64,000 bases of DNA from Amoebophrya sp. A120 (lineage: Eukaryota > Protista > Dinoflagellata). Location: positions 3,034,158 to 3,098,157 of the forward strand of contig CAJINV010000013.1 in assembly GCA_905178155.1 (NCBI GenBank), given 5' to 3'. This document shows, piece by piece, positions 3,425-62,800 of the stretch (positions within the stretch are counted from its first letter, which is position 1; each line of letters starts with the position of its first letter). The notes under the pieces are model-generated. The model did no database searches, was not told where the DNA came from, and saw only the letters and a list, made by a program, of their open reading frames with translations. The translations under genes and the position numbers were made by a program.

Positions 3425-4640
3425 ATGGTAGCAGCAACAGAAGACCCCTCACCTGGTGAGGGGGAGGAAAAAAATAAGGCAACGCCATTGTCCACTCCTC
3501 CTGCGACAGGAGCAGGAGTAAAAGAGAAGCCGGACGACCACGAGGATCGCTTGGAGCACGATACTTGTAAACCCGAGGAACCAGCACGAGAACAACTAGG
3601 AGAGCCTTTACAACATAACGCAAAAGTGAGCGATAAGCACAGCAAGGCGAAGGCAGAAGCTGCAAGAGAACTACTACGTCGGCAACACGCTCCATCCTGC
3701 TGCCACTTTTGTTGTCCGGGCAGACCGTATCAAATGTAAAAATGTCTGGGTCTGGAAGAATGCAACTTGTGATGCTGCGTCTGCATTATCCAAAAAAGCT
3801 GTATTGCATGAACAGCAAAAGAGGTCTGGTTTTGGTCACGGCGAGAGGGCATTTCTCATGCGGTATAGGCATCAGAAAGCCCTCACAAGATCTGTGATGC
3901 TAGGGCATGCATCGCAGACATCAGGAGTCATGCAAAATGTGCATGACAAACCTTGCACCCTTCCAGACCCAGACATTTTTGCATTTGATAGACCGCTGTG
4001 TTTCCTGATTTTTCTTTTCCTCCTCGTCTTTGCAAGTCTATCCTTCTACGCCAAGCACTTGCAGCGAAAGCACGCCTTCTACGACGAAGGGCCGATCTTG
4101 TTGGGTCGTAGAAAGCGGGTCTTCCATCATGGCAGGCGCGGGCGGCACGGTGGAACGGTAAGAAATTTTCAAGCAAAGCACCAGTTTTTGAACAGAATCG
4201 ATGACGACGCAGATGACGAGGAGCAGCAAGGGGAAGCTGAAACACGTGGTCGTCCAGGAGAGGGAGCAAGCACACCCGATCTTCCGGCAGAAGATGAGAC
4301 CAACATCAACTACGAATACGACCACCAGGATCGGGAAGACGAAAATGAAAATGCGCCAGCAGAGCCGCAACCCCCGCCACGGTACTTTCACCGTCGGCAC
4401 CTCCGTTCGGAACAGCCGACCGTGAACCCGAATAAGCTGAAGGGCTTCGACTACCTCCTTGCCGTGGATCACAAGCAACAGAAGCAGCTCGACAATGCTT
4501 ACTGGGACATGATGGGCAGCGACGATCCCGATGAGATCGACGACCAGATGCACAGCGCGTGGCAGAAAATGCAAAGAGAAGACGCGTTGGTTCTGAAGAG
4601 AACGGCACCAAAAAAGGTGGTCGATGACGATTCAGATTAA
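3425..4640 (+). CDS. Hypothetical single-pass membrane protein (2 exons)
   Basis: ORFs 3425 and 3804 fuse in frame (CCPGRPLCFLIFLFLLVFASLSF) after removing element 3728-3990; one hydrophobic segment. Confidence 0.7.
3728..3990. mobile_element. Introner, family A
   Basis: TIR tatcaaatgtaaaaatgtctgggtctggaag / cttccagacccagacatttttgcatttgata; TSD gaccg. Confidence 0.95.
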
Positions 4641-5878
4641 ACGAATAAACATCTGATGAGCACTCTCGTTGTATGTTGTAGTACTTTTTTCCGCGACCAC
4701 TCGCAATTGCATTTCAGTTGGTTCTTTTTCTCAATCTCATCTCGGCGCAGGAAAAAAGAAAAAGATCATCATGCCGAATTCAGCCTCGAAGAGGTGCGAG
4801 CTCTTTGCACAACGCTTGTGCCGCTATTCATGATGTGTAGGCATCAATTTCAGACTTCCGTCATTCCTGTCATTTCGTCCGCAAGGTTTTTTTCATCTTA
4901 GTCTTGCCGGAGACCGAGAGGAGCAAGCGGATTCGAAGAGATTGTACTTACTTTCGCATCTAATTTTCAAAGAAAAACTTGAGCTGACTGTTTTTCCAAA
5001 TTCTTTATGGTAGCTCTGAGTGAAGGTAGGACTACGAGCATCACAGGCGAACAATGAACGGCCAGCACTCGGTAGAGGAGAGGTCAGGCACTGATATTGT
5101 CTAACTTGGTGGATGGGGGTGGGGGCAAATCGAGAGAGTAGTTCAGCTTCTGTGCGACCATCAAATGCGTACATTGATTCCTACAGAAAATGCAAATGTT
5201 TTGCTCTTCGATGAATCGAGGAAAAAAAAGAGGTATAAAAATTCGAAAGTAGAAAGACCGCATAAATATAGAAGTAGGTCGTGCGTAATTAGCCACCGCC
5301 GGCGCCGGTGAGAATCACGAAGAGTGTGCTTGATTCTCCGGGTCCTCGACTGGTGAGAAGAGACCTGAAGTCGCGGCCACAGCGCACAGGCACAACGGAA
5401 ACGCCAAACCGCGACGGACTAGCTTCGGAAAGGGTCCGGGAGGACGCTGAAACACTGCATCCTCTTCCACATCCACCTCGGTGCTACCCGAAAATTAATT
5501 GTTCCGAAAGAGCTCCTGCCACAGGATGAAGCTAATCCACCGCATACGGGCCCCCGAAGAAACGAGGAATGACTTCTGAATACTTCTTCTTCATCTGATC
5601 CCTAGGGAAGAACAAGAAGTATACTGTGGTGCAGTTCATCTGGACGAGGAGCTGACTAGAGCTAGTGCGCTGCATTTATCGGAAAGCAGTTACCTAGAAG
5701 CGGCACAGCAACCTGATCGAACTCGTACTCGAGCAGCTCGTGCATGGGTGATGCCATTCTGCCGGGCTTGATCAGAGAAAAGGAAGTGAAGGCGACACCG
5801 GTTATTTTGAAAGCAACTAGCGGAACAAATATCTTCAATCCGAACAAAAACCCTCAACAAGCGGCGCATATCAGCAAG

Positions 5879-7819
5879 ATGAGCTCCAATACAAAACCGA
5901 AGCCCCTCACGGAGGTCGAGGGCGCCAATGGCGCGATGTGGAAAATCAACAAGAAGCTGGGATGTATAGCGTTTGCGTGTTTCGTCATTGGATAGGGTCG
6001 GTTGGAATTATTGGAATTCTTTCATGTTCATCTCAATTGTGCTACGTGTCCCACTGTGTTGTATCTATTCACTTTACCACCTACGTTCTTTCGCACATGA
6101 TTTATTACGGGAAAAAAAAATACTATCAGCCGGGAGTTTTGGAGAAGTGTTTCTCGCAACGCAGACATCAGAACGACCACTCGAGCCAGGGACCGAAGTA
6201 GCAGTGAAAGTAGAAGGCATAAAAACGGCACACCCACAACTGGCGTACGAAGCACGACTTCTCTCACTTTTGAGGGGGAACACGGGCATAAGTCAAGTTT
6301 ACCACTCAGGAATGCAGAAAGGGTATGATAAGACTTAGCTTGTTCTTCACGAGTTTTATTACCGTGCTGCAAGAAGGGAGTAAGCCTGGATATCGATCAA
6401 TCAACTCTCTGTCTCTACTAATCGTTTCTGTTTTGAAACAACAAATAAGTACTTACAAAAATCAGCTACAACGTGCTCGTAATGGAGCTTCTGGGCTACT
6501 CTCTGGAAGACCTGGTGGTGATGTGCCACGGAAAGTTCTCGCTGAAAACGTGCCTGTTAGTCATGGACCAGCTCCTGTCAAGAATCGAAGACCTGCACGC
6601 CGCGGGCTTCATCCACAGAGACATAAAACCGGAGAATTTTCTCCTCGGACGAGCGGACAAGGCAAACGTGGTGCACATAATCGATTTCGGTTTGAGCAAA
6701 AAATACTGCGACGGTAGAACGCAGGACCACATACCCTACAAGGACAACAAAAGTCTCACCGGGACGGCACGGTAAGTAGAGTGAGAGATGAATCGCCGTC
6801 GGCATCTTCGTGCATGACAAAAATCAACCTGTTTCAGAATCTAAGTCCATGACAAGCTTACCCATTTTTATCAGGTATGCGTCAATTAACGCCCACAGAG
6901 GGGTGGAGCAGAGCAGGCGAGACGATTTAGAAGCCATCGGGCACATGATGTTTTACTTCCTCAGGGGAAACCTCCCGTGGCAGGGGCTCCCTGCGAAAAC
7001 GAAAGACGAAAAGTAATGAATCAATAAATTCACGTGCTCCACATGGTCAGAGCGTTGTCTTGTTCATAATGTTGTGCTAGCAGCTTCCCACAATTTGATG
7101 GAAAAGAAAGCCACTTGTAGTGATCATGATTACAACATGACCCTTTCCCAGGTACCGAAAGATAAAAGAGAAGAAGATAGAGACTAGCATAGACTTGCTC
7201 TGCAGCGGGTTTCCGGAAGAGTTCGCCACCTACCTGCAATACGTGCGCAGCCTGCGGTTCCAGGTACGATAGGTTTAATACATGGCACGATTTTGGTGTC
7301 TCTCGGAGTTGATGTGCTTGCAGGGCTGATTTTAGTACTTTTTTACTTGTACAATCGGCGGCTTCGGGATCGCATGCAAGGACATGATCTGTGCATGTTA
7401 GACGAAAACAAATCTCAGGATCGACCGGATTATGCCTACTTGCGAGGATTGTTTCAGGAGAGGTACATCGCGGAGGGGTATCACAATGAACCAAAGGACT
7501 TCGATTGGACCGCGAAATTAGCACAGAAACAAGCCAACGAGGCCCAGGCGGCACAGAGCCGAGATAATCGCCCACCACCCAATTCCACCAACGCACTGCA
7601 AAGCAGAGGTATAGAATTTTGTTGTGAATAAATGATGACGTAACGACACGTACTACAACAACTTACGCGTTCTTGTTTTCAAGTTGAAGCGAAAAAAACG
7701 CATGACAGCGTAACATTCGAACTGAAAAAGGTGGCGAGCCGGCGAACAAGCAGGATGGCGTGGTGGCGCAGCCGAAGAGCCGTATGCGAAAGCTTTTTGC
7801 GCTCTGCTCCAAGGGCTAA
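5879..7819 (+). CDS. CK1: Casein kinase 1; about 7 exons, canonical GT-AG introns only
   Basis: Spliced motifs [101 protein letters not shown]. Introns 5964-6129, 6323-6465, 6772-6874, 7013-7151, 7264-7418 and one from 7609; last exon uncertain. Confidence 0.95.
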
Positions 7820-9097: not shown

Positions 9098-10709
9098 ATG
9101 GCGACCCAAGCAGCATCCTCTTCCGCTCATCCCGGCGGACCTCAAGACGACAACCCGGCAACAAGCAACCTGACCCCGCAGGACGCGGCTTTTCTTCGGG
9201 AGCACGCGTACCTGGCGAAATTAGCGGAGAAGGAGAGGGAGATCCAGAAGTACAAGCAAATCGCGAATGACGTGCAGAACCGCTTCGAGGACAATTTCGA
9301 GAAAACTTCGCTGCGGTTCGCAATGGTGGACCCGGCGGTGAACATGGAGATTTTGCTATTACAGTGAAAAATGCCCCCACCCCCAAAGTTGCACAAATTT
9401 GTGATGCGAAGTTTCCAAATGAAAACTTTTTGTCATGCATGAAAGGAGTATTTGTATGAATCTTTCTGATGCAGAGTCTAGGCGTGTATCGCATCGCTTG
9501 CATGACAAGCGCCACTCTTGCTGGGATCTTTTGCAATGCAAATTTTTTCTATTCACGATTGGAAGTCTGTGATGCTGATAGATGCAAGAGGGCGGATGTT
9601 TCATTTGGAAAGATTTGCAATACAAATTTCCCCAAGTTCGGGGGTGGGGGCATTTTTCCTCTCAATATCTGCGGCTACGGCAAAAAATACGCTCCCAGGA
9701 CGAGGAAATCGACGCACTGAAAATGGAACTGAAAGCGACACAGTTTAAGCCGACGAGGTAGACATAGTTTCATGTGTAAGTAAGTATTCCTTTATTGCAC
9801 CCTGTAGAAGTTTTGCTTGCAATCTGTGTATTGCATCTACTTTCGTTTCCATCACAAAAGATCAGAAGCATTACACTTCCAATACTATTCTTTCACCCCT
9901 GAATATGAATTAACAGTATCTCCGGGCAAAAGCTGATGAAGAAGTGCCGCGCTCTTTTGGAAGAAAACCAGTCGCTCGGCCGCCAGATTTCCGAGGGCCC
10001 GATTCAGGATCTGCTGGTTGCGCTCGGGTATGAAATGCAAAAATGTCTGGGTCTGGGAACTTGTGATGCTACTTTGTCAATGGTGGGCGCATTGCAATAT
10101 GCAGCCACGCATGACAAGTTTTTGAACTTCTGTGTGTTTCGCTTTCCGCATGACAAACTGCATATTGGCATGACAGGAGAGAGGGCCTTTTTCCTGCTCG
10201 TGCATTACAGATTTAAGAGTCGTGTGACGCAAGCACGACAAACTTGCACTCTTCCAGACCCAGACATTTTTGCAATCCATATCGGGAGCGAGAGGCAAAC
10301 GGTGAAACAGTTGAAGGAGAAGCTGAAGCAGTCGGAAACCGCGCGACTTGAACTTGATAACGAGTGCGAGCGGCTGTGTGCCCTGGTGGAGTCAAACGGG
10401 GGCATTAGTGAGCTCCCCGCGATGGAAAACCCGATGTACAGCGAGATGATGTCCGGCTTGGGGTACAACAATTCATCCGCTGGTGTCGCGGGCGGTGGGA
10501 CCCACTCCGCGTCTTCTAACGGAAACGAGAATTTCGAGAAGGAGGACGGCACGACGAAGTCGAAGAAATCCTCTACGGGAGAGAAGCGGTCCGGGAATGA
10601 TAAGAACGGGGAAAATGGGGTGGACAAGAAAAAGAAAGACCGAAAACGAAGAAAGGTCAGTCCCGGGGCCAGCGGGGCGGTGGAAGAGAAAGAGGAACGG
10701 AGTAAATAA
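9098..10709 (+). CDS. WTAP: WTAP/FIP37/Fl(2)d-family m6A writer regulatory subunit
   Basis: Reconstructed MVDPAVNMEILRLRQKI...ATQFKPTSISGQKLMKKCRALLEENQSLGRQISEGPIQDL matches the WTAP core (LLDPAIN...FTPDSQTGKKLMAKCRMLIQENQELGRQLSQG). Two introners plus one GT-AG intron (~9758-9917). Confidence 0.85.
9357..9667. mobile_element. Introner, family D, imperfect TSD
   Basis: TIR tattacagtgaaaaatgcccccaccccc / gggggtgggggcatttttcctctcaata; TSD tttgc / tctgc; internally the reverse complement of 53212-53517. Confidence 0.9.
10029..10281. mobile_element. Introner, family A
   Basis: TIR tatgaaatgcaaaaatgtctgggtctgg / ccagacccagacatttttgcaatccata; TSD tcggg; removal gives ALGSERQTVKQL. Confidence 0.93.
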
Positions 10710-11582: not shown

Positions 11583-14500
11583 ATGTCGACCACTCTACTA
11601 CGGCAACAGCAGCGTCAGCACGACGACATGGAGGCGGAGATTTTCGAGGATATGTGCTCCATGACGATGACGAGTACTTCCTTGAATCTGGCCGAGAAGG
11701 GTTTTGACATTGACAAACTCGCGAACCAGGCTTTTTTTGAAGAGGACCTCCCGGGTTTCGCCCACTTTGACGTCGTGGAGCATGACCAGCACGGGACGAA
11801 CACTATCAACGACTCGAGCTCGCTATGCATTGCAAATATGTCTGGGTCTGGAAGTCGATAACTTGTGATGCTGTCTTTGGATTCCAAAAAAATCTGTATT
11901 GCATGACTAGCAAGAGGAGTCCAGTTTGTGCCACGCGGGAAGGGCGTTTCTCATGCAGAATAGGCATCAGGAAGCCCCCTAAAAATCAGTGACGCTAGTA
12001 GGGCATGCATTACAGGCGTCGCGGGTCATGCAAAATATGCATGACAAACCTTTGGCAATCTTCCAGAGCCAGACGTATTTGCATTTCATACTCGCCCAAC
12101 CGCTACATCTACAACGAGGCGGAACTGCAGAGAGAGCAGGAAAGACGAATGCGGCAGCAACAAAATATTAACCATCAAAGCCAGAACAACCAGCAGGTGA
12201 ACAACAACTATTCCCAATCGACAAACAACTTCAGTCTAAACATGGCAAATCGACAGCAAGAATCACTTATCAAATGTAAAAGTGTCTAGGTCTGGAAGAA
12301 TGCAACTTGTCATGCTGTCTTTGGATTCCAAAAAAATCTGTATTGCGTGACCAGCAACAGGAGTCCAGTTTGTGTTACGCGGAGAGGGAGTTTCTCATGC
12401 GGAATAGGCACTAGGGAGCCCTCTAAAAATCTGTGATGCTAGATCATGCATTACATGCATCATGGATCATGCAAAATCCCGAAGTCTTCCAGACCCAGAC
12501 ATTTTTGCATTTGATATCACTCTCCTTTCTGCGTGACCCGAGCTACACCCGCACGGTGTCGACCTATCCTGTGCAAAAGTATCGTACTCGTAGTAATTGC
12601 ATTTATGCATTACAAATCTCTTTCTCAAGGTAAATCAGCACTACAAATTCAATTTGTAATGCTGGGCTAATTTGTAATGCAATTTATACTAGTACGATGC
12701 TTCTGCATTTCATACGACCGCGCACCAGACGACGCTGCTGTTTAGTCAGGAAAACGAGGACGAGGAGGCGTTGTCAGGTGAAGACGAAGAGAATATGCCC
12801 GGTGGTCATAATGCAGCAGCTGTAGAGCGAGAGCAGCAGGACCATGATCTTCACAGGGACGTCTACTCTTCGGATGACGACCTTAGGCGGATTGCTGCGA
12901 AGGCCGCCCCAGAGAACAACCGGAATATAATTAACAAAACTACCAGTCCCAAATCTAGGGCAAGCCAGAGTTATGAGGGCGAGCATGGAGATTCGCTGAA
13001 GAAAACGTCAACAAACAACAGCAACACAACGCATGAGCAGGACCACTTGCAGGGGACTCAGCAGGACACACAGATCCTCAACGACACGCTTTCCTCTCTG
13101 GGACAGCTCGACAACGCAGATCGGCCGAAGAACGACAGCTGCGCAAGCGAGTACCAGGTCCGGAGTCCGCCGAGGAGTCCGAAACAGGGAGCATTAAGGA
13201 ATGACGAGGTCGGAGGTGACGTGCCGAATATCAACACCAGCCAAAAAAAGCAGCTACAGAGACCCGGGTCCGCGCCGTGCCTCCCGAGTCGGATCCGCTA
13301 TTTAGTTCAGCTACCGAACAACAAGAAGGAGAACCACGTCGCGCTGGCCAACGGGCATTTGTCGAGGAAAACGAAGGAGAACTTGAATCTCGAACCCGAA
13401 GACTACCACCGCGCGTTAGACCACAACAGCCGAGTGCACGATTTGCAGGAGTTGTTGCTGAAGCAAAACATGAAAACGTCGAAGAAATACCACGCCTTCG
13501 TGGAGATGCTGAAGGACCGGAAGAGGAACGAAGCCAGCCGGTTCCCCCGACGGTGTGACCTGATGCAGATCGAGACGTTTTTCAACCTACGCGACTACAG
13601 CAGTTCCGAAGGGCCAAACATCGACTTGGCGGACTACAACGCAAGGTTCAAGCGGGACAAGCCCGGGACGCTGCAGATGATCTTTGTTTTCTACGCGAGG
13701 CTCTACACGGTGTTGAAGAACATTGAGGAATACCAAATCCGGCTGGGGTTGAACAACTACGACAGCAGCAAGGAATCGACCTCCTTTTTCCTGCCTTACG
13801 ACATGAGCAAACACTCCTTGACACTGCGGGAGATCAAGGATTTCTGGCTGGACTTCAACCTGAAAAAGCACATCAACTGGTACAAGTGCACCCAGATCTA
13901 CCAGGCGGTGAACACGAGGCCGACTTTGGACAGTCAGAACCGGGTTGGGTTGACCCTCGAGGAATTCGTGAAGTTTTTGGTCCTGATCGCACAGGAAATT
14001 TACCGATTTCAAATCGTCAAGCCGCACAAACGGGTGCAGACCTTGGTTTCCTTTTTGAACCTCCACAGGTGGGACAGCGTGAAATCCCATTTGCGGAACT
14101 GTTTCCGGTATGCATTGCAAATATGTCTGGGTCTGGAAGAGTCAAAACTTGTGATGCGCATTTCACAACACATGAAAATCTCTCATGCACAGGCAGCAAA
14201 AATTTCCCACCTTCTGTCACCAAAATGGGGCATTCGTGATGCGGATTCGGCATTGCGGAAGCTTCTCGAAAGCTGTGATGCTAGAACTCGTCCCATGCCA
14301 GACCTTCTGTGCCATGCAAAAGCAGCATTACTCGTCCAGACCCAGACATATTTGCATTTGATATCCGGGACCACCACCTGCAGAAGTACGATGAGTTGAC
14401 GGATTATGGAAGTGTCAGAATCGGAATTGACAAAATCGAAAAATTTGCGATGCATAAAATCGATACCAGTTGGAGCCTCAGTTTGTAACTGGCGCATGAC

Positions 14501-17500
14501 AAATTTCGGGAGCACCCAAATCCAGTCTGTCATGCTGTTTGGGCAAAGAAGACTCCTCCTTTCGTGCTACTCTGGCAGCGCATTTTATACCTCTAAACAG
14601 GCTTACAATCGGTCTCATTTCTTTGCCTGCTCCCCAATGCAGTCCTTACGTGCCCTACAATTTATGCATCACAAGTAGTTTTTCGATTTTGTCGATTTCG
14701 ATCCTGGCACTCCCATACGGATTTTGCGGTCGTGGCGAAGCGGTTGTGGTTGTTAACGAAAGCGGCGAAGATATCGAAGAAAAAAAGTTCGTCACGATCA
14801 CTCATGCGCATTCTTGCAATACAAAATTGTTTGTCATGCGTAAAAATGCATCACAGCCAAACTTCATTAGGGATTTCCCTAGTGTTTCTGCAATACAAGG
14901 AAAGTTTGTGATGCTGAGAAAATTTGTAATGCAAAGCCTGCAAGTTAGTGACTGTGACAAACTTTTTTCTCTCCATAGAAGACGACACCAAAGTTTGACG
15001 ACGTGAAGATGTTCGACAAGCAGAATGGAATTGACGTGAAACGGTTCGGGCTATCAAACGTAAATATGTCTGGGTCTGGAAGAGTGCATGCTTGTCATGC
15101 TTGTCTGGCATGACTCTCAAATCTGTCATGCACGTTACCCAAGAGCGCTACTTTTCTGTCATGCAGAAACGCAGTTTGTCGCGCCGAATAGGCAACACCT
15201 AGAAGCTCAGAAACTTGTCATGCTAAGCCAGCACTTGTGGCCTCCTCCTCATGATACGCCACCGAGCATCACAAGTTTCCAGACCCAGACATATTTGCAT
15301 TTGATACGGGCTGCACAAGTATCTGTGGTTAAATGTGGAGAAATATCAAATGTAAAAATGTCTGGGTCTGGAAGATTGCGAGACTTGTCGTGCATATTTC
15401 GGATCACGCAAATGGCGTCTGATGTAGGCAAAAGCATCACAGGTTTTGAGCACGCCTCATGATGCCTGTCCCGCATGAGAAACTTCCTACTTGCTTGCCA
15501 AGAAATGGACAGCTTCTGGTGCGCATGCAACACAACTTTTTGTGTGTTCCAGAGTTTGCATCACAAGTTCCAACCCTTCCAGACCCAGACACTTTTACAT
15601 TTGATAAGAAAGAGTGGGTGAAGTTCACGGAGCAGAATAGCTACGCCAACGGAATTAACATGCCGCGGTTCGACTACGCGAACGCGAAATCTTTCAACTG
15701 CTCGGTGCTGCCGTTTCTGGACTGCGGGATCATCTCGATCGGAGAGACGAAGCACTTCAAAATCAAGGTGAAAAACCTCTGCAACCACAAGGCGTCCTTC
15801 AAAATGGAGCCGGATTACCACAACTGTCCGACCTTCGTGTCTGTGACGTACCAGTGTCCGCGAGGGGGCGTGGCGCAGGGCGGCTTCATCGAGGGCGTGG
15901 TCAAGGTCGCGCCGGATTTCGTCAAGGAAGCGGTCGGCAGCTTGGTGGTGTGGCAGAAGTCCAGTGCTGGGGAGTAGGATAGTGTTTCTGTTTGATAATT
16001 TTTTTTTAGTTCCGACGTTCTTTCGCCATGAAGTAGATCGATGTGCCGTGGTGGTCTCGGCAGGAATACATCAAGTTTGCAAGAAAACCTCCAAAGTGAA
16101 AAAGTCTGGACCTCTTCAATCTCACTGTCAGGTTCCGCGAGGCCCGCATTCCACTGTACGTGAAAGCCGTCGACATGGAGATGTGGCATGAAGGGGATCC
16201 GTACCCGTCGAAGTATCACACGCAAATCGGCACCGAAATACCCGCGACCGACGACAAGCTCCGGACGAATTGCCTCCCGGCGACCATCCCGCCCGCGTTC
16301 CACCGCGCGGACACGAATGCGGTGAAAATGCGACGGGAAATAAAATTTTCTTTGAACAAAAAGATTTGCCGCAACGACGACATCCTCCCGAAAGACGGGG
16401 CCAAGCCGGACAAGAAGGTCTACTCGAAGCAGAAAGTAACGAAGCTGCAGCAGAAGCCGGCGAACCGGGCGAGCGTCACGATGGGAAACTTGGGCGTGAG
16501 GACGGAATTCAAGATGCAGACGGAAATGGGCACGTTTTTGGACAACGAACCGGTGAACGCACAGAACTTCGGGGGGATAAGAAATAGCACGCGGCCGAGC
16601 ACGGCGGGAGGGGTTGGGAGTAGCGGAAGCACTGCAGCTGCCTCTCCTGCTGGGATGAGGCAGCTGCCTCTCCGGACACTGCAACGACCGCAGTCCAGCG
16701 CTGGGATGATGACGATGAACGAACAGGCCCGGTTCGACAACCTGAATCGCATCCAGGCCGCCACTATCAAATGTTAAAATGTCTGCGTCTGGAAACTTGT
16801 GATGCTGCGTTGGGAATAGTGAATGCTCTGTAATGCACAGCCAAGCATGAGAAATCAAATATCTGCGCTTCTTTGTGTGGCGTTTTTCGCATGACAAACT
16901 GCGTTTCTGCATGACAGGCAAAGGGGTCTCTTCTTGGACACGCATCACAAACTTTTTGGTCATCCCAGACAAGCATGACAAATCTTGCATTCTTCCAGAG
17001 CCAGACAATTTTGCATTTGATAGCCACGTCAGTGCCGCGGGTTGTCGGCCCGAAGCGGAGGTTTCTGGGATTTTCGCAGGAAGAATTAGAAGAGAAGCAC
17101 AACACGCGGGAGAGGATCGAGAAGCAACGACAAAACCAGAAGGCCACAGGCGTGATCAGCGGAAAACGGATCAAGCACTGCCGACCCGAGGACCCGACCC
17201 TGTTCGGAACGGCTTTCGAGCTGGACACCGAACTCCGAGATAGCGATGAGGAGCCTTTTGCGGAAGAGGAGAAAAAGCCGCCAAGTAGAATGAACGCTTG
17301 GTCGTCGGTGCCGCTTCTGCGGTTGACGAAATCGGACGCTTTAGAGAAGGAGCAGTACTTGAAACAGCGAAGACACGACTCAACGATTTCCAGGAACCGG
17401 CTGCGCAACCGGCAGATCGTGCAAAACTCCAAATTTTACAACTCGATGGACACGGCGATCAACGGGGAGCAGCAAACGTTGTCGACTGTCAATCTAGCTG

Positions 17501-18712
17501 CGGGAGAAATGATGAATACAACCTCCAATGCAGGAATAAAGAACAACGACCCTCATCAAGTGGATGACAAAAATTTCGCATGGAAAAAATCAATCCCGAC
17601 GAAGGAGGAGCAGCAAGTCCGGGAAATCTTGACGGCAAATAGCAGGCCACAAAAAGTGTTGCACTACCCGGAACTGAAATTGTCAAATAGCAGTTTGACC
17701 TCGTCTTCGGGGGAGCAGCAGCAGCAGCGAAACAAGCAGCAAGCAGGAGGTAACTACAAGCAAGGAGGAGATTCATCGTCCGTGCATCAGTTTTACCCGG
17801 AGCAACAAGTAGACGATGATAACGACGAGCAGGCCCTTGCTGAGCAGGCTGCAGCACAGGGCACGAAGATACAACGACATGTTGGGCAAGTAGATCACGC
17901 AATGAAACTACAAAACCAGAAGCAAAAACCACCAGGGACTCAGCCTCCAAAGCGGCTCATTCTCGGGGAGGCGAGTGTTGTATCAAATGTAAAAATGTCT
18001 GGGTCTGGAAGAGTCATGCTGTTTTTGCATGACACAGAAGGTCTGGCATGGAAGCTCTAGCATTACAGGTTTCGAGAAGCTTCCGCAATGCCGAATCCGC
18101 ATGACAAATCCCCCACTTTGGTGACAGAAAGTGGGCAGCTTTTGCTACCCATGCATGAGAGATTTTTCTGCGTTCTGAAATGTGCATCACAAGTTCGGAT
18201 TCTTCCAGACCCAGACATTTTTACATTTGATATGTTGCGACGCCGGACGATGAGCAATCGCGGGAAGAACTGTTTTATCAAATGTAAAAATGTCTGGGTC
18301 TGGGAGCTTGTCATGCTGGGTAGCGTCTCATGATGAGGCTACAAATGCTGGCTCAGCATGACAAGTTTCTGAGCTCCTAGCTGTTGCCTATTCTGCATGA
18401 CAAACTGCGCTTCTGCATCACAGAAAAACGCAGCTCTTGGGTAACGTGCATGACAGATTTAAGAGTCATGCCAGAGAAGCATGACAAACATGAATTCTTC
18501 CAGACCCAGACATTTTTGCATTTGATATGTTTTCGCAGAAGTTTCTGTGCGGGCCGGGCGCGGGACCAGCGGGGGGAGTTTCTTCCGGGCAGCTCGGCGG
18601 CTTTGGAATGAACAAAAAAGTGGTGCAGTGTATGGAATGGGGAACTTTTATTTTTTCGGGATTATGGATTTGCGATCTCACTCTTTGTTGTGCAGCCGTA
18701 GTTCATACATGA
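11583..18712 (+). CDS. Large hypothetical protein with a possible ASH/MSP-like Ig segment; 11 introners plus at least one canonical intron; 3' end uncertain
   Basis: A continuous frame is recovered after removing 11 elements and GT-AG intron ~15974-16131. FLDCGIISIGETKHFKIKVKNLCNHKASFKM resembles ASH-domain starts (tentative). Confidence 0.7.
11824..12090. mobile_element. Introner, family A
   Basis: TIR tatgcattgcaaatatgtctgggtctggaag / cttccagagccagacgtatttgcatttcata; TSD ctcgc. Confidence 0.93.
12268..12516. mobile_element. Introner, family A
   Basis: Family A TIRs; TSD tcact; close reverse-complement relative of 60008-60275. Confidence 0.93.
12565..12714. mobile_element. Introner, family H (150 bp, shortest)
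   Basis: TIR tatcctgtgcaaaagtatcgtactcgta / tactagtacgatgcttctgcatttcata; TSD cgacc; removal gives VSTAHQTTLLFSQENEDEEALSGED in frame with ORF 12771. Confidence 0.88.
14109..14363. mobile_element. Introner, family A
   Basis: Family A TIRs; TSD tccgg; reverse-complement relative of 17981-18232. Confidence 0.93.
14405..14717. mobile_element. Introner, family E
   Basis: TIR tatggaagtgtcagaatcggaattgacaaaatcgaaaaa / tttttcgattttgtcgatttcgatcctggcactcccata; TSD cggat. Confidence 0.9.
14772..14977. mobile_element. Introner, family F
   Basis: TIR tatcgaagaaaaaaagttcgtcacgatcact / agtgactgtgacaaacttttttctctccata; TSD gaaga. Confidence 0.88.
15052..15306. mobile_element. Introner, family A
   Basis: Family A TIRs; TSD cgggc; reverse-complement relative of 18276-18527. 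Confidence 0.93.
15344..15606. mobile_element. Introner, family A
   Basis: Family A TIRs; TSD agaaa; removal gives WLNVEKEWVKF. Confidence 0.93.
16765..17022. mobile_element. Introner, family A
   Basis: Slightly diverged family A TIRs; TSD gccac. Confidence 0.92.
17981..18232. mobile_element. Introner, family A
   Basis: TIR tatcaaatgtaaaaatgtctgggtctggaaga at both ends; TSD tgttg. Confidence 0.94.
18276..18527. mobile_element. Introner, family A
   Basis: Family A TIRs; TSD tgttt. Confidence 0.94.
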
Positions 18713-22230: not shown

Positions 22231-23104
22231 ATGGACATTGAGAGCCTTCGAAAAAATCCGACCGCGAATCAGCGGCGGATCGGGGAACTGAAAAAGCAGC
22301 AGAGGGACCTGTTTCGCGAACAGAGGACAGTAGCGCAGGAATGGAATAAAGCGCTGGAGCCAGGTACGGAGACTTCTAATAGGTTTGTTCTTGCGACTTC
22401 TGGATAGACTATGATGAAACCAAATGCACTACATACTTACTAACTTTTGTGAAGATGCAATCGTTTCGCACACTGAGACCACCTAAAAAACAGAGAACAA
22501 AGTGCAGACGAGTAATATCCGGCGTATGCGCGTCGCGGTGTTTCTGAGCACACAACCTGGGCAGATTGAGTACGGGCAGACGCCGCCGGATTTATCTCAG
22601 GCGTCCCGCTACAGACGAAGGACGACGCAGATTGAGCAGCTGCAGAAGCAAATAGAGGGCTGTACTGAGGAGATAAAGAGGCTGGAAAATGAAGAAAGAA
22701 AACAAAACGCCGAGAAAGCTTCCGGAACGAAGATGGGGTCGATACAAGAGTGGAATCGAGCCTACGGGATGGCCAAGAGGACGATGAGTATAAATATGGA
22801 AATTTGCCGTGACCTCGACCTGTTTGTGTTTTGCTCAGTCGAATTTTGATCATGATCTTGTTTGTGCATCGCTAAGTGTGCATGACACCGCAACGAACTG
22901 CTTTTCTCTAGCGTTTCCAGTGCCTGAGAGTTCTTCAATTTTCGAAAACAAATTAATTTTCCAGGTAAAACGGAGCGGTGGCTCTCCTACGTCAAACCGC
23001 CTTCGCAGATCATTTCTGGGGCGGAGAGCAAGGACGGAACAGTAAAGTTTCCGGGAAGCTTGAGCCAGGCGCTGCCGATGCGACGCGGGATGCTGACAGA
23101 TTGA
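22231..23104 (+). CDS. Small coiled-coil hypothetical protein, 3 exons
   Basis: MDIESLRKNPTANQRRIGELKKQQ joins ORF 22502 via a GT-AG intron from 22363; a second intron from 22788 leads to a final exon ending TGA at 23104. Confidence 0.55.
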
Positions 23105-34143: not shown

Positions 34144-34189
34144 AACGACAGGAAAAATTTCTACTAAACGACAGAAAAAATTTCTACTA
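34144..34189. repeat. 23-bp tandem duplication
   Basis: aacgacaggaaaaatttctacta followed by aacgacagaaaaaatttctacta. Confidence 0.8.
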
Positions 34190-37579: not shown

Positions 37580-38096
37580 ATGACTCGCATCGACCGGTAC
37601 CCCTTGCTGCCGGGCGTTTTCGCGTCGGTGTACCCGAATCCAAAATCCGAAACCGCCCACGATACGAGCAAATCTGACCCCGCGCCACCGCCGAACGCGA
37701 AGTGCAGTGCAGCCGATGTCGCGGCGATGGTGGCTAAGCTGGAGCACGCGGCGCCAGGTAGTCTACTTTGTTGAGATTGATGTTACCATGCTGCATGACA
37801 GACCAATGTTTCTGATGTAGAACATCTACTGCTTTTGGTCATCAAGATCAAGACCAACATCTTCAGTTGTAACATTTTATCAAACTTCAACAGGACCGCA
37901 GTACGAGGCCAACCTTTCGTTGTTGAAGCGGTGTGTCTGGCTTCAGAGCAAATCAAGCGACGAGGGCTGGGTGCAGTTGCGTGCGGAGCTGGGGCCGAAG
38001 GGGACGGACTTTATGTCGCTGAACCGAAAGGATCCCCGGGTGGATTTGCTTACCTACGGAAAGCCGCCAAATACGTTGTCGAAATTCGGGTTGTGA
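37580..38096 (+). CDS. Small hypothetical protein, 2 exons
   Basis: MTRIDRYPLLPGV...EHAAP joined by GT-AG intron (~37758-37892) to GPQYEANLSLLKRCVW...SKFGL-stop. Confidence 0.5.
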
Positions 38097-50648: not shown

Positions 50649-50791
50649 AAAATGTTGGAGAAAGAGCAGCAGCCGTTCCTATTTCTTTGGGGTTAAGCTG
50701 CAGGCATGTTCTGGGCGAGCAAGTGGAAGGCTTGTGTTCACCGCGGGCATTTTTCTTGAGCTCATTTGACTCCGCCACGGAGATGAGTGAT

Positions 50792-52235: not shown

Positions 52236-52478
52236 CAGCTGCGGCTCCCTTTTGACACAGCGGGCCTGGGTCATGGCTCCGTAAGTAGCGTGCTTCGCTT
52301 TACGTGTTGTACGTCATCGTGTTCGGTGTTTTTCTGTTTCCGAGTCAATGGGAGAGTGAGGCAGACAAGTTGTGCACCTCGGGAGATCGGTGAGTGAGAG
52401 CTACAATATCTGAAAACAAGGCTAAGAGTAGAGCGCGCGGTCTTCAGGGTTTATTTTTCCGCAAGCAACCTCGTCAAG

Positions 52479-53674
52479 ATGGCGGCTCCTTCTATGGCTT
52501 TCCCGCTTCTGTTCTTCCACTTCAACCGGAACAAGGTTTGGCACCGCGACAAGCGGCTGACCCGCGAGGAATTACAACAGTTCCCCGAGATCTGGACGAC
52601 TTGGGAGAGGCGTTGCTACCGCCAATTCCTCGACGAGGCCAAAGACTGGAACGCCAGCAAAAAAGATCAGCAGCCCAAAGTGCACATCCACTACAACAAA
52701 AACAAAGGCTCCTCCAGTTCTTCCTCCACTTCCAACATCGGGCGAGATAGCGAAAGCACCGAGCTGGGCGAGATGGAGCTGAAGCAGCAGCAGCTGCAGA
52801 AGATTTTTCCGCAAGAACACATCTACCACACTTTGCAAGAAGACGTGAAGAAGTGCCGAAAACGGATGCACTCCAATATCCTGAGTAAAAACGTACCCAC
52901 ACCAGAGTCAAGTTGGGGAATCAGCTAGACAAATCCACAAGTTTTGGCTGTTTTGCATGACAAATTTGGATTCGTAGTGTAGTGCTGCTTGAGCTAGCTA
53001 GACAGCATCACAGATCTAGCATACCATGCTGATTGGAGCATGACAAATTGCAAAACACGACTAGAAAATGCTTCTCATGGGGCTCCGCATGAGAAACATT
53101 TTCAGCATGCAGATTTGCATTACAACTCTGGTGTGGGTACGTTTTTACTCAGGATATCCAACGCGACACTGGAGTCCGCGCACGAGTGTCACTACCGGAT
53201 CAAGGAGCTGATATTACAATGAAAAATGCCCCCACCCCCGAACTTGAAAGCATTTGTATTGCAAATCTTTCCAAATGAAACATTCGCCCTCTTGCTTGTA
53301 TCAGCATCACAGATTTCCGATCGTGAATAGCAAAAATTTGCATTGCAAAAGATCCCAGCAAGAGCGGTGCTTGTCATGCAAGCGATGCGAAACACGACTA
53401 GAATCTGCATCAGAAAGATTCTTACTCCTTTCATGCATTACAAAAAGCTTTCATTTGGAAACTTCGCATCACAAATTGTTGCAATTTCAGGGGTGGGGGG
53501 CATTTTTCACTCTGATAGCTGACGGACGTATGTCTGTACGCCGGGGTGCACTTCGCAGACAGCGCCGCACCGGTGTTCGACGATACTGAGTTCCACAGGA
53601 TAGCGGCGACGGCCTTCCAAAGGTTGGAGGAAGGGAGGGGAAGGCATGAGATCATGGGGGTAAGGGGGAAGTAG
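52479..53674 (+). CDS. Hypothetical protein, two introners
   Basis: ORF 52479, micro-exon 53162-53211 and exon from 53523 join as RMHSNATLESAHECHYRIKELTDVCLYAG. Confidence 0.7.
52877..53156. mobile_element. Introner, family C
   Basis: Perfect TIR tatcctgagtaaaaacgtacccacaccagagt; TSD tccaa. Confidence 0.95.
53212..53517. mobile_element. Introner, family D
   Basis: TIR tattacaatgaaaaatgcccccacccc / ggggtggggggcatttttcactctgata; TSD gctga. Confidence 0.93.
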
Positions 53675-54126: not shown

Positions 54127-57100
54127 ATGAAAGTCGTTGGGAGCAGCGACGCCACTGCAGCATCATCTGCATCGTCCTCCCCCGCTGTTGAGAGTAGGAG
54201 CCGCGGAGTTTTTACTCGTCGCGTGACTACCGCAGCCCCTCTGCAGACCGCAGCAACGGCCGTTGCCCCCTGTGCAAAGCAGTTTCGCGTCCTTTTGTTA
54301 CACGACACTGCTCGTCGTTCCTGCTGCTGTGAAGCAAGGATAGAAGGAGCAGCCAAGAGAAAAGAACCGCCGAACGTGAAGACCACTACGCCAGCGCTCG
54401 AGAAGTCACGAGCCAAAACTCGCTGGAAGCAGCGCTGGAAACAAGGTGGTGGGACGTCGAGTCGTCTTGAGACCTGTGTCCATTTATGCAGGAAGAATCT
54501 ACTCTTTCGCGCAGCGCCCGCGATATGTTGTCTTCTCTGGAACTACATCAACTTTTTCTTCCTTTTGTCCTTCGCGAAGATCGAAAGCAAAAACAACACT
54601 CCGGTGGAGAAGAAGGTCACCGTGAAAGAGACCGTTTTTGACTCTCCGATAGATCGCATGGAGTGGTGCGGGGACGACAACGAAGTGGTGCTGATTTTAA
54701 CCCGGAGGGGCAGACTCCATCGCTCTTCAGACGGCGGCGTTCGATGGGACGACATCACCGCGCAGCTCGGCGACGCGAACGACAACTCGTTCGACTCTTT
54801 CTTGGTCTCGCCGGCGGATAAAAGGGTATAAGTAAGGACCACGTATCACCAGTACAATAGACGACTATCACTTGATGTTGAGACCTATGTCTCCGACCGT
54901 ATAGATACTTGCGTTTCATCATCCCAGGCCAGGGAGCCTCCCCTTGGTTGTGAGTGCATGTAAAAATTTTCGCCCTAGGTAGTCGCGCAAAACAAAAAAG
55001 TGCACTGCTTAAGTTGAACTTGCCTCACGATTTCATACACAGTATCTCGTCGCCGTGGGTACTTCCAAATCCCATTTCGTGTCTTCCGACGCTGGCAGAT
55101 CGTGGCGGAAGTTGAAGCAAAAGGCAACGATCCACACCTTCGTGTTCCACCCAACCAAAGGGCAATGGGCTCTCCTCTCTAGTTGGACGGACAGTTGCAA
55201 CGATAGCGCCGCAGAAAAGCGGACCAGCGCCGGGAGCAAGGCGGAAAAGGCGCTCAGCGGACGGGGGGGAAGTCAACAGCCGTGTGTGCATAACTTGTTC
55301 GTCACCAAAGACCTCGGTATTTTATATTCGATTGATGCGTGCACAAGCGGTCTTTCTTTTCACTGTACGTAGTAGAAGAGTGGTAGTAAGTACCATGATA
55401 TCCTTGCCGGAGTCAGCACTAGGACTAAAATGGAAGGCAGCACGACCAGGCAGCGCAATTCGTTCTTTCGTTCAAACAAACTCCTCCAGGCGTTACCTTC
55501 ACCCTCGTGAGTTCCTACGTGGTTCAATTCGCTTGGGGCGAAGTAGAATCCGCAGCCTCGACATCAACTTCGCAGCCACAAGGCGGAACGTCCGCAAGCT
55601 CCCCCCAGCAACTCCCTCCTTCCGGAAAGGAAAACCTCATTTACTTCTCCCATTTCAACCAAAAATCCGGCAACCAGCCGAAATTGCTCGCCTGGTCGCT
55701 CGGGGTCGACTTCTGCGTCACCGAGGACTTCGGCAGGAATTACCAGACCCTCGTCCCCGCCGGGAATAAGTTTGGCATCTTCACCGGGTACATTTTCGTC
55801 GCGAAACTGGACAACGCGGCCACGCAGAACGTCGCACTGATGGTGTCCACTGATGACGGAAAAAGTTTCGGTCGGGCGAAGATCGGCGAGCAATTGGAGG
55901 AGTATCAAGTGTAAAAATGTCTGGGTCTGGAAGATTCTGACACTTGTCATGCACGTTTTGCATGAGCCCTGATGTCTGTGATGCATACCCTAGCAATACA
56001 GTTTTTTTGAGGGCTTCTTGATGCGTATTCCGCATGACAAATGCCTTCTCCGCGTAGCAGAAATTACATTCCTTTTGGTACTCATGCAATACAGATTTTT
56101 TTGGAATCCAAATGCAGCATCACAAGTTGCATTCTTCCAGACCCAGACATTTTTACATTTGATAAGGAGAAGTCGTACACAATTCTCGACACGTCCGAGG
56201 GCGCGGTTGTGCTCCACGTCCACCTATCAAATGTAAAAATGTCTGGGTCTGGAAGAATGCAAGATTTGTGATGCAGTTTTTCCATGACCCGTAACCCCTG
56301 GAATGCAGCACCTAGCATGACAAACGCTGCGAGGCGTCTATCATGCCTATTCTGCATGAGAAACTCCCTGTCAAACTGTTCAAAAGTGGACATCTTTTGG
56401 CAATCATGCAACACAAATTTTTGCATGCTTCAGATTCAGCATGACAAGTTGCATTCTTCCAGACCCAGACATTTTTACAGTTGATACCACCACGGCCACA
56501 TCGGCGACACGGACGTGGGTCACGTGTACATTTCTGATGCGAAGGGGCTGCGATACACCAAGTCCCTCTCCGCCAACGTGCGGAGTAACGATGGTACGTG
56601 TGACTTCGACAAGGTGGGCGGTATCGACGGGATCTACATGGCAAATCAGGTGGACACGGACGAGTTGTATGGGAACGACAACGCCGAGGACTTGCGGGAA
56701 GACGTCGCCGACGCGGAAGAGGAAATCGCCAACAAAAATATCGCGGGAGGTGCGGGACCCAGTGCGATGAAAAAGGGGAAGAGCGAATCCAGGGTGCGGA
56801 CGGTCATATCCTTTGATAAGGGAGGCACCTGGAGCGTCATTGCGCCGCCGGAGTTTGATAGTTTGGGTACAAGAACTTCTACGCATAGATAGTTAGGTCC
56901 TTTCAGATAATTACCCTGTTTTCGCTTTTTGTTTTTTCTGTTCAGTGTTCGCAAAGACTTACCGGCTCTTCTTGTCATGGTAGATGTAGGCTGCGGATGA
57001 ATTTGTACCACGCCTAAAATTTATATCAAGGTCAACGCGTCGACGCCTGTGACCAGCTCCGAATACAACAATCGTCCACTTCCTCCCCACAATCCTGCAG

Positions 57101-59036: not shown

Positions 59037-59802
59037 GCAGGAGAGGCTTGCGCTCATTTCTGTGTTGAACAAGAAGTAGAAACACAACTAACTTATTTAG
59101 CTGCTTATAGCTTTATTTTAGTCCTCTAATTAGTTTTTGCTGGTGCTAATTTGATGTTTTTGTCACTGAGATACTGAGAATGCAAAAATGTCGCATGTGA
59201 TTACTTGATTTCAGGAAATGAGAGAGCCCCTGGCGTGCCACTTTTCCCGTCTGGGCACGAAAAAGAGGCCCTTTACAACATGGTAATTTTGCAATTTTCG
59301 CATGCACTTTTGGTTGCGCTTTTCGTTTTCCATGTATGACTCGAACAAGGAATGAAAATTCAGCACAAGATTCTTGATGTAAGTGGGAGGCGTTATTGTG
59401 GCAGGTATAAATAAAAACCCGCAGAGTTGTTTGTTCCTCGCGTCATCATTCCTACTTTTGTTGAAAGTCGTGTAATCTGCAAGAACGTGCTCAAAGTCGC
59501 CCCCCAAAGAAAAACCGGAATCATTCAAAAACGCACCAGGTTGTTGAGGGTGTGCTGCTGCCAAGGACGAAATCGAAAGCCAAATTTATTGATAAGACAC
59601 TGCTTCGTCATGTTTCTTCGTCAAGCAGCTGGCTGCCTGGACCGGACCTTCCAAAGTTTGCTACAGTGCTTTTATCAGATCAAAGCAATTTTCAAAGAAG
59701 ATGAAGATTTCGTTCACCAGCTGGAATTTACGCTTTAGGATTTTGCTGAATGAACATCAATCTGACCAAAATCACCTAGTTATTTCACTACCTGTTGCCA
59801 AA

Positions 59803-62800
59803 ATGGTTGCAAAAGCTGGCTCTAAGGCTGCGAAGAAGAGCAGCAAGAAAGTTGCGCAGAAAGGCAGGGCAAGCAAATCTTCTGCCTCTCAGGGTGCTGC
59901 TACAACCATTAGAGGTGCAGGTGCAACTGCGTCAAGTAAAAAACTGACGAAGCAGACATCCAAGTCGAGCAGTGCCACGTCCACCGCTTTCGACGATGAG
60001 GATGAAGTATCAAATGCAAAAATGTCTGGGTCTGGAAGATTCCGGGATTTGTGTTGCATATTTTGTATGGTCCATGATGCATGTAATGCATGATCTAGCA
60101 TCACAGATTTTTAGAGGGCTTCCTGATGGTGATGCCTATTCCGCATGAGAGATGCCCTCTCCGTGTAACACAAACTGGGCTCCTGTTGCTGGTCACGCAA
60201 TACAGATTTTTTTGGAATCCAAAGACAGCATGACAAGTTGCAATCATCCAGACCCAGACATTTTTGCAATCCATATGAAGACATGTTGGAGCTGCAGCAC
60301 TTGCCCCATTTCAACGACCTGGTCGATATGAACAACCTGGAGCAGAACAGCGACGCGCAAGTATCCTGAGTAAAAACGTCCCCACACCAGAGTTGTCATG
60401 CAGATTTGCAAGCACAGGAACATTTGTAATGCGCATCGCCAGGAGAGGCATTTTTAGTCGTGTTTTGGAATTTGTAATGCTGTAAACAGGATGAGCAGAT
60501 GGATTTCTGATGCAGCTGGCCTTGCGAACCTGCACTACACTACGGACTGCAACTTGTGATGCGTGACCCCCAAAAGTTCTAGGTTTGTGTTGCAAAATCC
60601 CCATCTTGACTCTGGTGTGGGGATGTTTTTACTCAGGATAGCAAGATGACGAGCAGGACGAAATTGATCTCGAGGGATTTGTTGTTGATGATGAACAAAC
60701 CGCCAGCCAGCCGCGGCGCTCCTGGCGCTTCAACGTCCGGGAGTACGACGGGACGAGGACGGTTGTCGTGGATTTCGGCGGGGCGAACAAGAGCCCCGCA
60801 GACGAGTTGGCCGCGAGGGAGAAAAAAGCCGCTAAGAAGGCGGAGAAGAAAAAAATGAAAGCGATGAAAATGAAATCTAAGGGGGCCGCTAGTACTGCTG
60901 GGCGAGCAAATAAGGGAAATAACAAGAAAACAGTTACTTGTGACTCTGATTCGGACGATCTGGAACAAGATTCTGATGAAGATGATTTGGGGAAGGAAGA
61001 AGAGGAGGCAGAGGCGATCGAATTCGGTGTCGGGGACGCAATTTTGTACACACAGCTAGTACAACCAAGTGACCCGGATTGCAACGGCAAAAATTCATCG
61101 TCGTCAACTGTCTCCTTCAACGATCTCTACCTGAATCCCCGCGATTCGGAGAAAGTGCAGTTAGGTTTCGTCATGGGCTTTGTTTCGGCAGGCAGTACTA
61201 GCGATGACGAGATGGAGGATCTGCACGCAAGCAAATCCAGCAAACGAAAATCCTCTAAAGCTTTTTCGACGAGGACGAAAGAGAAGAAGAAGAATGCGAA
61301 AAACCACGACGCAAAATCAACATCCGACAACGGCAAATCAGACCTCTTCATCAAAGTCCGCCGATTTGCGCATTCCGGCCAGCTCAACAAGCTGTTCACC
61401 ACGAAGAAGGAAAAAGACGCGTTTGAAATGCACGATCAGGAACTAATTTTCACGGAGTGGGAAGAGGTGGTGTCTTTTCACCAAGTGGAAAATACCTGCG
61501 TGATCTACTCCGCAGAGGAATTTTTTGACGACAAAACCCCCGACGGTGCGATCGCGGAGACGGCGGACGTTTTGCTAGAGTTTTTCTGCCGCCGGGGTTT
61601 CACGGAAAGCAGCCAGAGACTATCACATGTAAAAATGTCTGGGTCTGGAAGAGTGCCAGACTTGTCATGCAGATTTTACATGACATATGACGTCTGTAAT
61701 GCATAACCTGGCATCACAGATTTTTAGCGGGCTTTCTGATGCCTATCCCGCATGAAAAATACCCTCTCCATGATGTAGCACAAACTGGACCCCTCTTGCT
61801 GGTCATGCAATACAGATTTTTTTAGAATGCAGAGACCGCATCACAAGTTGCAATCTTCCAGACCCAGACATTTTTGCATTTGATAGAGACGGGGGTTTCC
61901 CGATTTGGAGTGGAATACGGTCAGCGAACTATTGTGAGGAAAATCCCCCCCTCCCCATATCGAACAGGCATGCTTCCGAAAATTTGCGTTGCTGATTTGA
62001 GGTCACAAATCACATCTGTCTTGCAAGAAGACAAGGGCAAAAGCTTCGCCCCCATTATGGAGGCGGTTTGTCATGCTGTTGGGCCTAAAGGGGAGCCGTC
62101 TGCCATTCTGAACAACTAGACCGATACGCCCCTGCATAGCCGGGGGATCTGGCCGCGATGCCTTCCTGCAATACAAAGCCGATTTGTGTACACAAATCCC
62201 GCATCACAGATTTCCATTTCGATACGGGGTGGGGGGATTTTTTCTTTTGATACGAACAGATCGTGAAGCATTTAAGGGAGATGAGTGACACGGCTAGTAC
62301 CGGTGACACAGCACTACAAGCTGGCGCGGGAACATCATCTTCAAAAAGTGGAAATAAAGATAGAAGCAAGAAAACTAACACTACAAAAGAGCACAAGAAG
62401 CTGAAAGTCCTGACGAAAGTTTTCGCCGACGACCACGACGAAATGTCCGACGATTCCGACACGGAGGAGGACGAAGCGGACAACTTTTCCTACCTGGACA
62501 AAATTTACAACAACGAGAAACAAATGAAGCAACTGTTCCCGACCTGGTTTCAGCGAATGATGGAAGCACGGAAGCAGTTGTTGCCAAGCAGTATCCCGGA
62601 AGTGCTGCCCTGCCGGGAGAAGGAGAAGGAGGAAATCTACGCGTTTTTGCGGATGGCGCTGGAATCCGGGGACTACGACCACAACAAGGTGATGTTCATC
62701 GCCGGACTGCCCGGAACGGGCAAGACCGCGATCGTATCCGAGATTTTAAACGAGATGGCATCTTCTTCGACTTCATCATCGTCAGCTTCAAGTTCATCTT

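Follow-up and report, generated by a model that had tools for sequence, protein, structure and literature searches.

Introners of Amoebophrya sp. A120 have inverted repeats that begin with TAT and finish in a run of A, are flanked by direct repeats of 3 to 5 nt, and are removed at non-canonical junctions, according to the accessible part of their description (Farhat et al. 2021, PMC7789003). Families with members about 107, 149, 209, 256 to 261, 305, and 320 nt long are listed there and in a later account (PMC7789003; Gozashti et al. 2025, PMC12130899), and one A120 family is described with integrase-related homology and a "5-bp TSD, TA/TA termini" (TSD, target-site duplication) (Gozashti et al. 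2025, PMC12130899). How tens of thousands of non-canonical introns move and are precisely removed, with no transposase or U1 snRNA found, was left as a question in the part of Farhat et al. (2021) that treats it. We analyzed a 64,000-nt stretch of the A120 genome (contig CAJINV010000013.1, positions 3,034,158 to 3,098,157; here called the window), for which an earlier inspection of the letters alone (the original prediction) had claimed an octamer on a conserved spacing lattice inside several families of inserted elements. The window holds 31 elements of 150 to 328 nt, 8,399 nt in total, that start with TAT, end with ATA, and bear terminal inverted repeats (TIRs). As far as the published descriptions extend, these are Amoebophrya introners, with the same TAT ends, run of A about ten bases in, direct repeats, and non-canonical removal. 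In strain A25 the elements end in TTA, and the introns of strain AT5 are canonical. Judged from its sequence behavior, the word inside the window elements is a genuine DNA code under strong selection and in helical phase; unrelated introner families share it, and ordinary introns echo it. The accessible portions of the introner accounts contain no internal word, spacing rule, phase, uniform 5-bp TSD, or single-copy removal. Literature searches turned up nothing relevant on a motif or phased code within the introners; Roy et al. 2023 (Curr Biol) and the supplementary figures of the introner accounts might bear on novelty.

Several other systems resemble the introners in part. In the available sections of work on hAT elements, repeated subterminal words modify transposase activity, arrays in Ac, Tol2, Hermes, and Kat1 likewise place several short polar words inside the ends, where they serve end recognition, and domesticated Kat1 keeps its subterminal array for a host function (PMC4763223). 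Several conserved short repeats with polarity toward the ends, a feature of such arrays, are present here, but the introners differ from hAT in having one word across families with unrelated TIR cores, a strict lattice over the whole element, and persistence of the word in ordinary introns. The hAT TSD is 8 bp, compared with 5 bp here, and multi-site ends are a feature of Tn7 and Mu. IS3EU/GingerRoot elements, as partially consulted, have TA..TA termini like those found here, while their usual 6-bp TSD differs from the 5 bp of the introners, only one window copy reading as 6 bp (PMC10045372). A DDE integrase-like transposase, expected in autonomous IS3EU/GingerRoot copies, was not found among the 125 open reading frames scanned. 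The 4- to 5-bp TSDs described for Ginger2/TDD are near that value, but the TGTNR termini of Ginger1/Ginger2 were not found, the ends here being TAT (PMC2836005, in part). Euglenid nonconventional introns share with introners a TIR hairpin, TSD-like repeats, non-canonical junctions, and a probable origin from miniature transposable elements (MITEs); their CAG/CTG signature is absent from the introner end consensus, and the part of that literature covered describes no internal phased code (PMC11282704). In other dinoflagellates the 5-hydroxymethyluracil (5hmU) motif consists of a TG-rich repeat, unlike the introner word. Binding of TGCATGCA-like words by ApiAP2 proteins is a lead only.

A conserved word inside the introners

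The octamer TGTNATGC has 108 matches on the two strands of the window, compared with 8.33±2.66 in 100 shuffles, and 98 of them lie inside the 31 elements, leaving 10 in the remaining 55,601 nt. Its concentration in the elements and scarcity elsewhere were thus correctly noticed. Among 20 individual coordinates given in the original prediction, 15 are exact octamers and four are one-base variants (10233, GCACGACA; 3800, TGTATTGC; 3854, TCTCATGC; 3869, GCATCAGA), while 3834 (GGTCACGG) does not match. The proposed free base occurs as G, C, or T, and GCATAACA has no match in the window; the copy number of about nine per element was too high, the window maximum being six strict or seven relaxed sites.

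We extended the sample by scanning metagenome contigs with the main TIR, which gave 151 matches at 145 loci, merged into 130 stretches that total 590,901 nt and come from a single related assembly. These stretches contain 384 further elements; after 21 with a TSD match of three of five positions or fewer were left out, 394 elements including the window's 31 were clustered, which gave 13 families with 366 copies in all, plus 28 singletons. The word is present in every one of the 13 families, with four to nine conserved sites each and two in the shortest, and 13 of the 384 elements lack a strict site. When the sites were masked, just two weak alignments remained among the 13 family consensuses, in agreement with the claim that the word is common to families with dissimilar interiors; some families do share site layouts (4/5/11 and 7/9/12). 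The full site is (T/A)GCA(T/A)(G/C/T)ACA(A/G)(A/G)T, 11 to 13 bp long, with the short form GCAWBACARR(T). Six core positions are 91 to 99% invariant, and A hardly ever occurs as the variable base. Families 2, 5, 7, and 12 also conserve a variant, GCACTACA, in their interiors (for example, at window positions 60531-60538).

Conservation was measured symmetrically in nearest-neighbor pairs grouped into four identity classes. Motif columns differ at 2.7, 3.5, 5.2, and 7.8% over the four classes, TIR positions 11 to 30 at 4.2, 5.4, 9.1, and 15.5%, and spacers at 4.4, 8.7, 16.9, and 31.0%, the closest class being statistically weak (p=0.05 for motif versus spacer and p=0.15 for motif versus TIR). 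The variable base of the word changes at a spacer-like rate. Earlier identity figures favor motifs because these were defined from one sequence of each pair, and the symmetric version is preferred. In 54 copies with damaged ends the motif differs at 12.4% and the spacer at 28.7%, where detection by hidden Markov model (HMM) favors intact motifs.

At the element ends, the consensus of the 384 copies has A at 70 to 93% in positions 11 to 15; the TAT start was a search criterion. The TSD is 5 bp in 30 of the 31 window elements (one of these matching at four of five positions) and 6 bp in one. Among 277 high-TIR copies, 219 have an exact 5-bp TSD and none has 6 or 7 bp, and the TSD sequence is random. 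A reversed-sequence control of the element search returned 29 matches; it does not provide a clean null and was set aside. Agreement between the two arms is poor at positions 4 to 7 (0.44 to 0.73) and best at positions 11 to 13 (0.95 to 0.96), and the hairpin is therefore loose immediately next to the junction.

Helical phase and sites in ordinary introns

At the family level, 20 same-direction gaps fall at 29 to 35 bp, compared with 5.1 expected. Same-direction sites are typically 31 to 33 bp apart, in phase at 10.5 bp, whereas both classes of opposite-direction pairs lie half a turn off, at 15 to 17, 34 to 35, and 45 to 50 bp. The periodogram peaks at 10.5 bp in all three pair classes, and with one family taken per shared layout, the phase signal holds in 18 of 18 subsets (p<=0.031). 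The individual gaps in the original prediction are real but are not the shared rule, since the dominant cross-family spacing is 31 to 33 bp; the 39-bp gap is family specific and off-phase, and gaps of 18 to 21 bp are unenriched (3 versus 3.4 expected). The lattice is also set relative to the ends. The first inward-facing site lies 32 to 33, 40 to 44, or 53 to 55 bp from the end in 19 of 26 family ends, and these 19 offsets cluster at three, four, and five turns (R=0.83); among singleton elements, 24 of 28 scored ends have the first inward site at 31 to 34 or 40 to 43 bp (R=0.58 over the 28 ends). Element length as a multiple of 10.5 bp gives R=0.35 over the 13 families. We infer that the sites are spaced so as to lie on one face of B-DNA. 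Conservation, the 10.5-bp phase, the phase to the ends, strand neutrality, and the lack of pairing covariation described below all support the original proposal of helically phased, putative sites for one DNA-binding factor.

After masking, elements contain 10.06 cores per kb; the corresponding figures are 1.04 for predicted introns, 0.24 for the remaining noncoding DNA, 0.09 for coding sequence (CDS), and 0.17 for DNA more than 400 nt from genes. The original prediction had staked itself on motif columns being more conserved than spacers and on the word being rarer outside the elements, and both hold: columns are the more conserved in all four identity classes, and no other compartment approaches the density in elements. 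Non-element introns (39.9 kb) nevertheless contain 43 perfect cores compared with 5.5 to 6.2 expected, about a 7-fold excess, whereas variants with one non-tolerated mismatch occur at the background level (91 versus 82 to 90); most of these introns are parser predictions without RNA support, a few of the sites belong to missed elements, and the element library is a small sample of the genome's families. In 61 high-confidence introns, perfect cores number 12 versus 1.3 expected and broken variants 26 versus 20.7. Simulated neutral decay, run until BLAST loses the element, leaves 2.5 to 5.6 broken sites per intact one, whereas 0.03 to 0.5 are observed. Intact sites in ordinary introns, without an excess of broken variants, point to continued selection and suggest host use.

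The arrangement of these sites recalls that in the elements. In 86 GT-AG introns without terminal repeats, there are 15 strong sites compared with 0.87 in shuffled sequence, of which 6 lie 30 to 45 nt from the intron 5' end (p=0.009); 65 of the 86 have no site. Pair gaps in those introns are 33, 33, and 48, and, when all non-element sites are taken together, 8 of 28 same-direction gaps are 31 to 34 and 5 of 5 "<>" gaps are 14 to 15 or 48, although pair counts are small. No TIR remnant was found at canonical intron ends, and scores for a hidden TIR or TSD around non-element sites are as in controls, save for a few missed elements. Ordinary introns are about 100 to 220 nt long.

Candidate readings of the code

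Exact skips of element plus 5 nt were found at six window elements (3728-18527) in the contigs of two RNA-type runs from a single sample, and six GT-AG introns are spliced in the same runs; both counts are among the 15 joints listed of 35, and none of the runs listed has a record that labels it as RNA. The raw reads of RNA runs X9 and X10 included five and three partial reads, which speak neither for nor against removal. The skip equals the element plus one TSD whatever the TSD sequence, so that the pre-insertion exon is restored, the position of the cut inside the repeat not being distinguishable. Removal at non-canonical junctions, as in published A120 introners, was thus seen at six elements. 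Separately, a 248-nt skip in RNA-type contigs (window 18630-18877) has GT..GC ends and several motif-like words inside and lacks a direct repeat or TIR.

The reading we favor, with about an even chance in our estimation, is that the octamer is the conserved core of an 11- to 13-bp word that would serve as a double-stranded DNA site for one end-organizing protein, probably part of integrase-type mobilization machinery. Fixed phase to the TAT ends, a random 5-bp TSD, and TA..TA termini point to such machinery. Pairs of protomers would bind three turns apart on one helix face and, once bound, would bend or wrap the 110- to 320-bp element, bringing the two TAT ends together for cutting and joining with a 5-bp stagger. 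The host may now depend on the same protein, in which case sites would stay selected after an element stops moving. Several observations weigh against this reading. No transposase was found in A120, as far as the consulted account goes (Farhat et al. 2021, PMC7789003), and Pfam scans of 19 window open reading frames (ORFs) and 106 locus ORFs (from 261 non-overlapping ORFs of >=170 amino acids) recovered no transposase family. Same-direction phasing comes mostly from the 31- to 33-bp class, the cosine falling to 0.02 to 0.39 once gaps of 29 to 35 bp are removed; the end-offset period is not sharp (R of 0.78 to 0.84 from 10 to 12 bp); and spacings are partly inherited, because families share ancestry. 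Sites run through the whole element interior rather than just near the ends, and a pure transposase role accounts neither for intact sites in TIR-less introns nor for sites kept in the 54 end-damaged copies, subject to the detection bias already given. A 6.2-kb candidate for an autonomous element, in locus L066, proved to be an artifact of two short elements, and no TIR match was found in viral contigs.

In the main rival reading, introns would be marked on the DNA, at a set distance from the intron ends, by a host DNA-binding or chromatin factor that delivers the newly made transcript to a splicing machinery with relaxed requirements. The elements would have amplified this mark and would thereby be removed precisely without GT-AG. 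Sites are enriched in introns and hardly so in CDS or distant intergenic DNA, TIR-less GT-AG introns carry strong sites with element-like gaps and 5'-end offset, and the ratio of broken to intact sites is far from that of neutral decay. We regard this proposal as tentative, since 65 of the 86 introns and 13 of the 384 elements lack a (strict) site and most of the introns are predictions of the parser; furthermore, we know of no precedent for a host DNA-level intron mark. It would merge with the mobilization reading if the factor were a domesticated transposase. The corresponding broader view, that introns are defined on DNA by one protein, possibly a domesticated transposase, that reads the phased code at three or four turns from the intron ends and brings about exact removal, is one we likewise advance only as a possibility on the doubtful side.

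The remaining readings are all improbable. In one of them the word works at the RNA level, where it could be a branch point that has been rewired, a word bound by a protein, or the stem of a hairpin, and GCAUNACA resembles the yeast branch point UACUAACA. The window's 23 GT-AG introns have five sense and no antisense sites, the bias that raised the branch-point idea, and the standard branch word YTRAC is depleted on both strands (5 versus 17.9 sense in the window, 12 versus 29.6 in the loci). In 38 high-confidence introns of independent loci, from 267 predicted by a parser trained on the window, the bias is reversed (one sense, six antisense), and the branch-point idea was dropped for this reason; 179 exon-embedded elements, inserted both ways, have 241 sense and 269 antisense sites. 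Element 14109 is removed without a strict sense site, and the near absence of A at the variable base and the better fit of a period of 10.5 than of 11 also speak against an RNA word. A rewired U2 pattern had no exact match in the metagenome contigs, a search of no informative value, since a diverged U2 would escape exact matching, and the 7 loci (of 145) compared with Rfam gave no match. Elements do fold as strong hairpins (z=-10 for 18276-18527), with motif bases predicted to be paired more often than spacers (78% versus 62%), yet the arms of opposite-direction pairs show no covariation, the outermost pair of family 0 being complementary at the variable base in 40 of 169 copies compared with 73 shuffled; pairing as a conserved property was therefore rejected. 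We consider the RNA reading largely refuted and very unlikely. Equally unlikely is looping at the DNA level, in which the lattice would hold the element out of the way, and transcription would pass it by or it would be excised from a transcribed DNA copy by joining of the 5-bp repeats; such an insert would have no need of splice sites. Such looping would suit a code with DNA geometry tied to the ends and the removal of exactly one TSD of random sequence at six junctions, but element ends joined to other flanks appear in RNA-type contigs, so the elements appear there (DNA carry-over being possible), and euglenid hairpin introns offer a post-transcriptional precedent in the portion of that work seen (PMC11282704). 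A generic bending or nucleosome/DVNP-positioning pattern without a sequence-specific reader would be in keeping with the 10.5-bp phase and the length of ordinary introns; we rank it lower still, since the invariant core and the exclusion of one base at the variable position imply base-specific reading. Least probable of all is that the word is an unselected relic of one repeat-rich ancestor of the families. Shared layouts (4/5/11 and 7/9/12) are what descent would leave, but motif columns change about 1.6 to 4 times slower than spacers, with the variable base itself changing at a spacer-like pace, which refutes a relic unless mutation spares these bases.

With an end-organizing protein as the preferred reader, the phased conserved word may be a concrete bait for the missing protein, and changes of core bases, together with 5-bp versus 10-bp changes of spacers, could separate mobility from removal. 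Survival of the word in ordinary introns suggests a route from transposon signal to host intron signal. If true, a DNA-level intron mark would stand in for the missing U1 recognition step for tens of thousands of consensus-less inserts.

Elements and genes of the window

All genes of the window are on the + strand and include those for a calcium-binding mitochondrial carrier (75% identity to its closest named relative, from Amoebophrya sp. A25), a protein kinase, a WTAP-like protein, an RCC1-repeat protein, DnaJ, and Vps10. All 31 elements sit within coding exons, and deletion of each element plus one TSD reopens reading frames, with 17 of 17 hand-built gene models stop-free, plus one ORF at 45835. 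In the related loci, 179 of 302 classed copies are exon embedded, as judged with a parser that labels 42% of element-free DNA as coding. The 23 GT-AG introns of the window (for example, 5964-6129) all begin with GTA; 6 are RNA confirmed and 17 were hand picked.

Table 1. Introner elements of the window and octamer sites in its ordinary introns
Feature	Position	Strand	Remarks
Element, family 5	1209..1524		5-bp TSD; mitochondrial carrier exon; 4 relaxed sites
Element, family 4	2216..2540		Deletion of element + 5 nt gives back RTRMQ of orthologues
Element, family 0 (family A of the original prediction)	3728..3990		Sites 3768, 3800, 3854, 3869, 3893, 3941; RNA skip 268 nt = element + 5
Element, family 11	9357..9667		Within WTAP-like gene
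Element, family 0	10029..10281		Sites 10062, 10109, 10148, 10168, 10202, 10233
Element, family 0	11824..12090		
Element, family 0	12268..12516		
Element, family 1	12565..12714		150 nt
Element, family 0	14109..14363		RNA skip 260 nt = element + 5; no strict sense-strand site
Element, family 6	14405..14717		RNA skip 318 nt = element + 5
Element, family 10	14772..14977		
Element, family 0	15052..15306		
Element, family 0	15344..15606		
Element, family 0	16765..17022		RNA skip 263 nt = element + 5
Element, family 0	17981..18232		RNA skip 257 nt = element + 5
Element, family 0	18276..18527		Sites 18309, 18356, 18395, 18415, 18448, 18479; RNA skip 257 nt = element + 5
Element, family 2	24026..24280		Diverged; within RCC1-repeat gene
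Element, family 2	35902..36181		
Element, family 4	36270..36587		
Element, singleton	39721..39976		Diverged; no strict site
Element, singleton	40063..40353		Diverged; reads as 6-bp duplication, one extra base per end
Element, family 5	43705..44032		
Element, singleton	45835..46072		Diverged; one site
Element, family 2	52877..53156		
Element, family 11	53212..53517		
Element, family 0	55903..56164		Within Vps10/sortilin gene
Element, family 0	56225..56486		
Element, family 0	60008..60275		
Element, family 2	60362..60640		
Element, family 0	61621..61885		
Element, family 4	61930..62252		Slightly beyond span of the original prediction
Site GCATGACA	6812..6819	+	RNA-confirmed GT-AG intron 6772-6874, 40 nt in; no terminal repeats
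Site GCATGACA	7700..7707	+	RNA-confirmed GT-AG intron 7609-7730
Site GCATTACA	9868..9875	+	Inferred GT-AG intron 9758-9916, 41 nt before 3' end
Site GCATGACA	22880..22887	+	Inferred GT-AG intron 22788-22964
Tolerated variant GCATGAGA	25619..25626	+	Inferred GT-AG intron 25508-25660, 34 nt before 3' end
Site GCATGACA	37793..37800	+	Inferred GT-AG intron 37758-37893, 35 nt in

Two long elements stand out among the related loci. A 972-nt family-0 element (L068:11014-11985) with perfect 30-bp TIRs and a 5-bp TSD adjoins an exon of the RNA polymerase II largest subunit and contains about 700 nt of foreign DNA, flanked on each side by a copy of a short repeat that includes the motif. A 1,104-nt element with family-6 ends (L016:505-1608) has a GC-rich degenerate repeat in its 3' part and an ORF without a Pfam match. 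The window itself includes a GC-rich island at 50800-52280 (70% in 51001-52000), with ORFs overlapping on both strands and without a Pfam match, and the element-bearing assembly encodes a C-5 cytosine DNA methyltransferase (L013:2625-6080).

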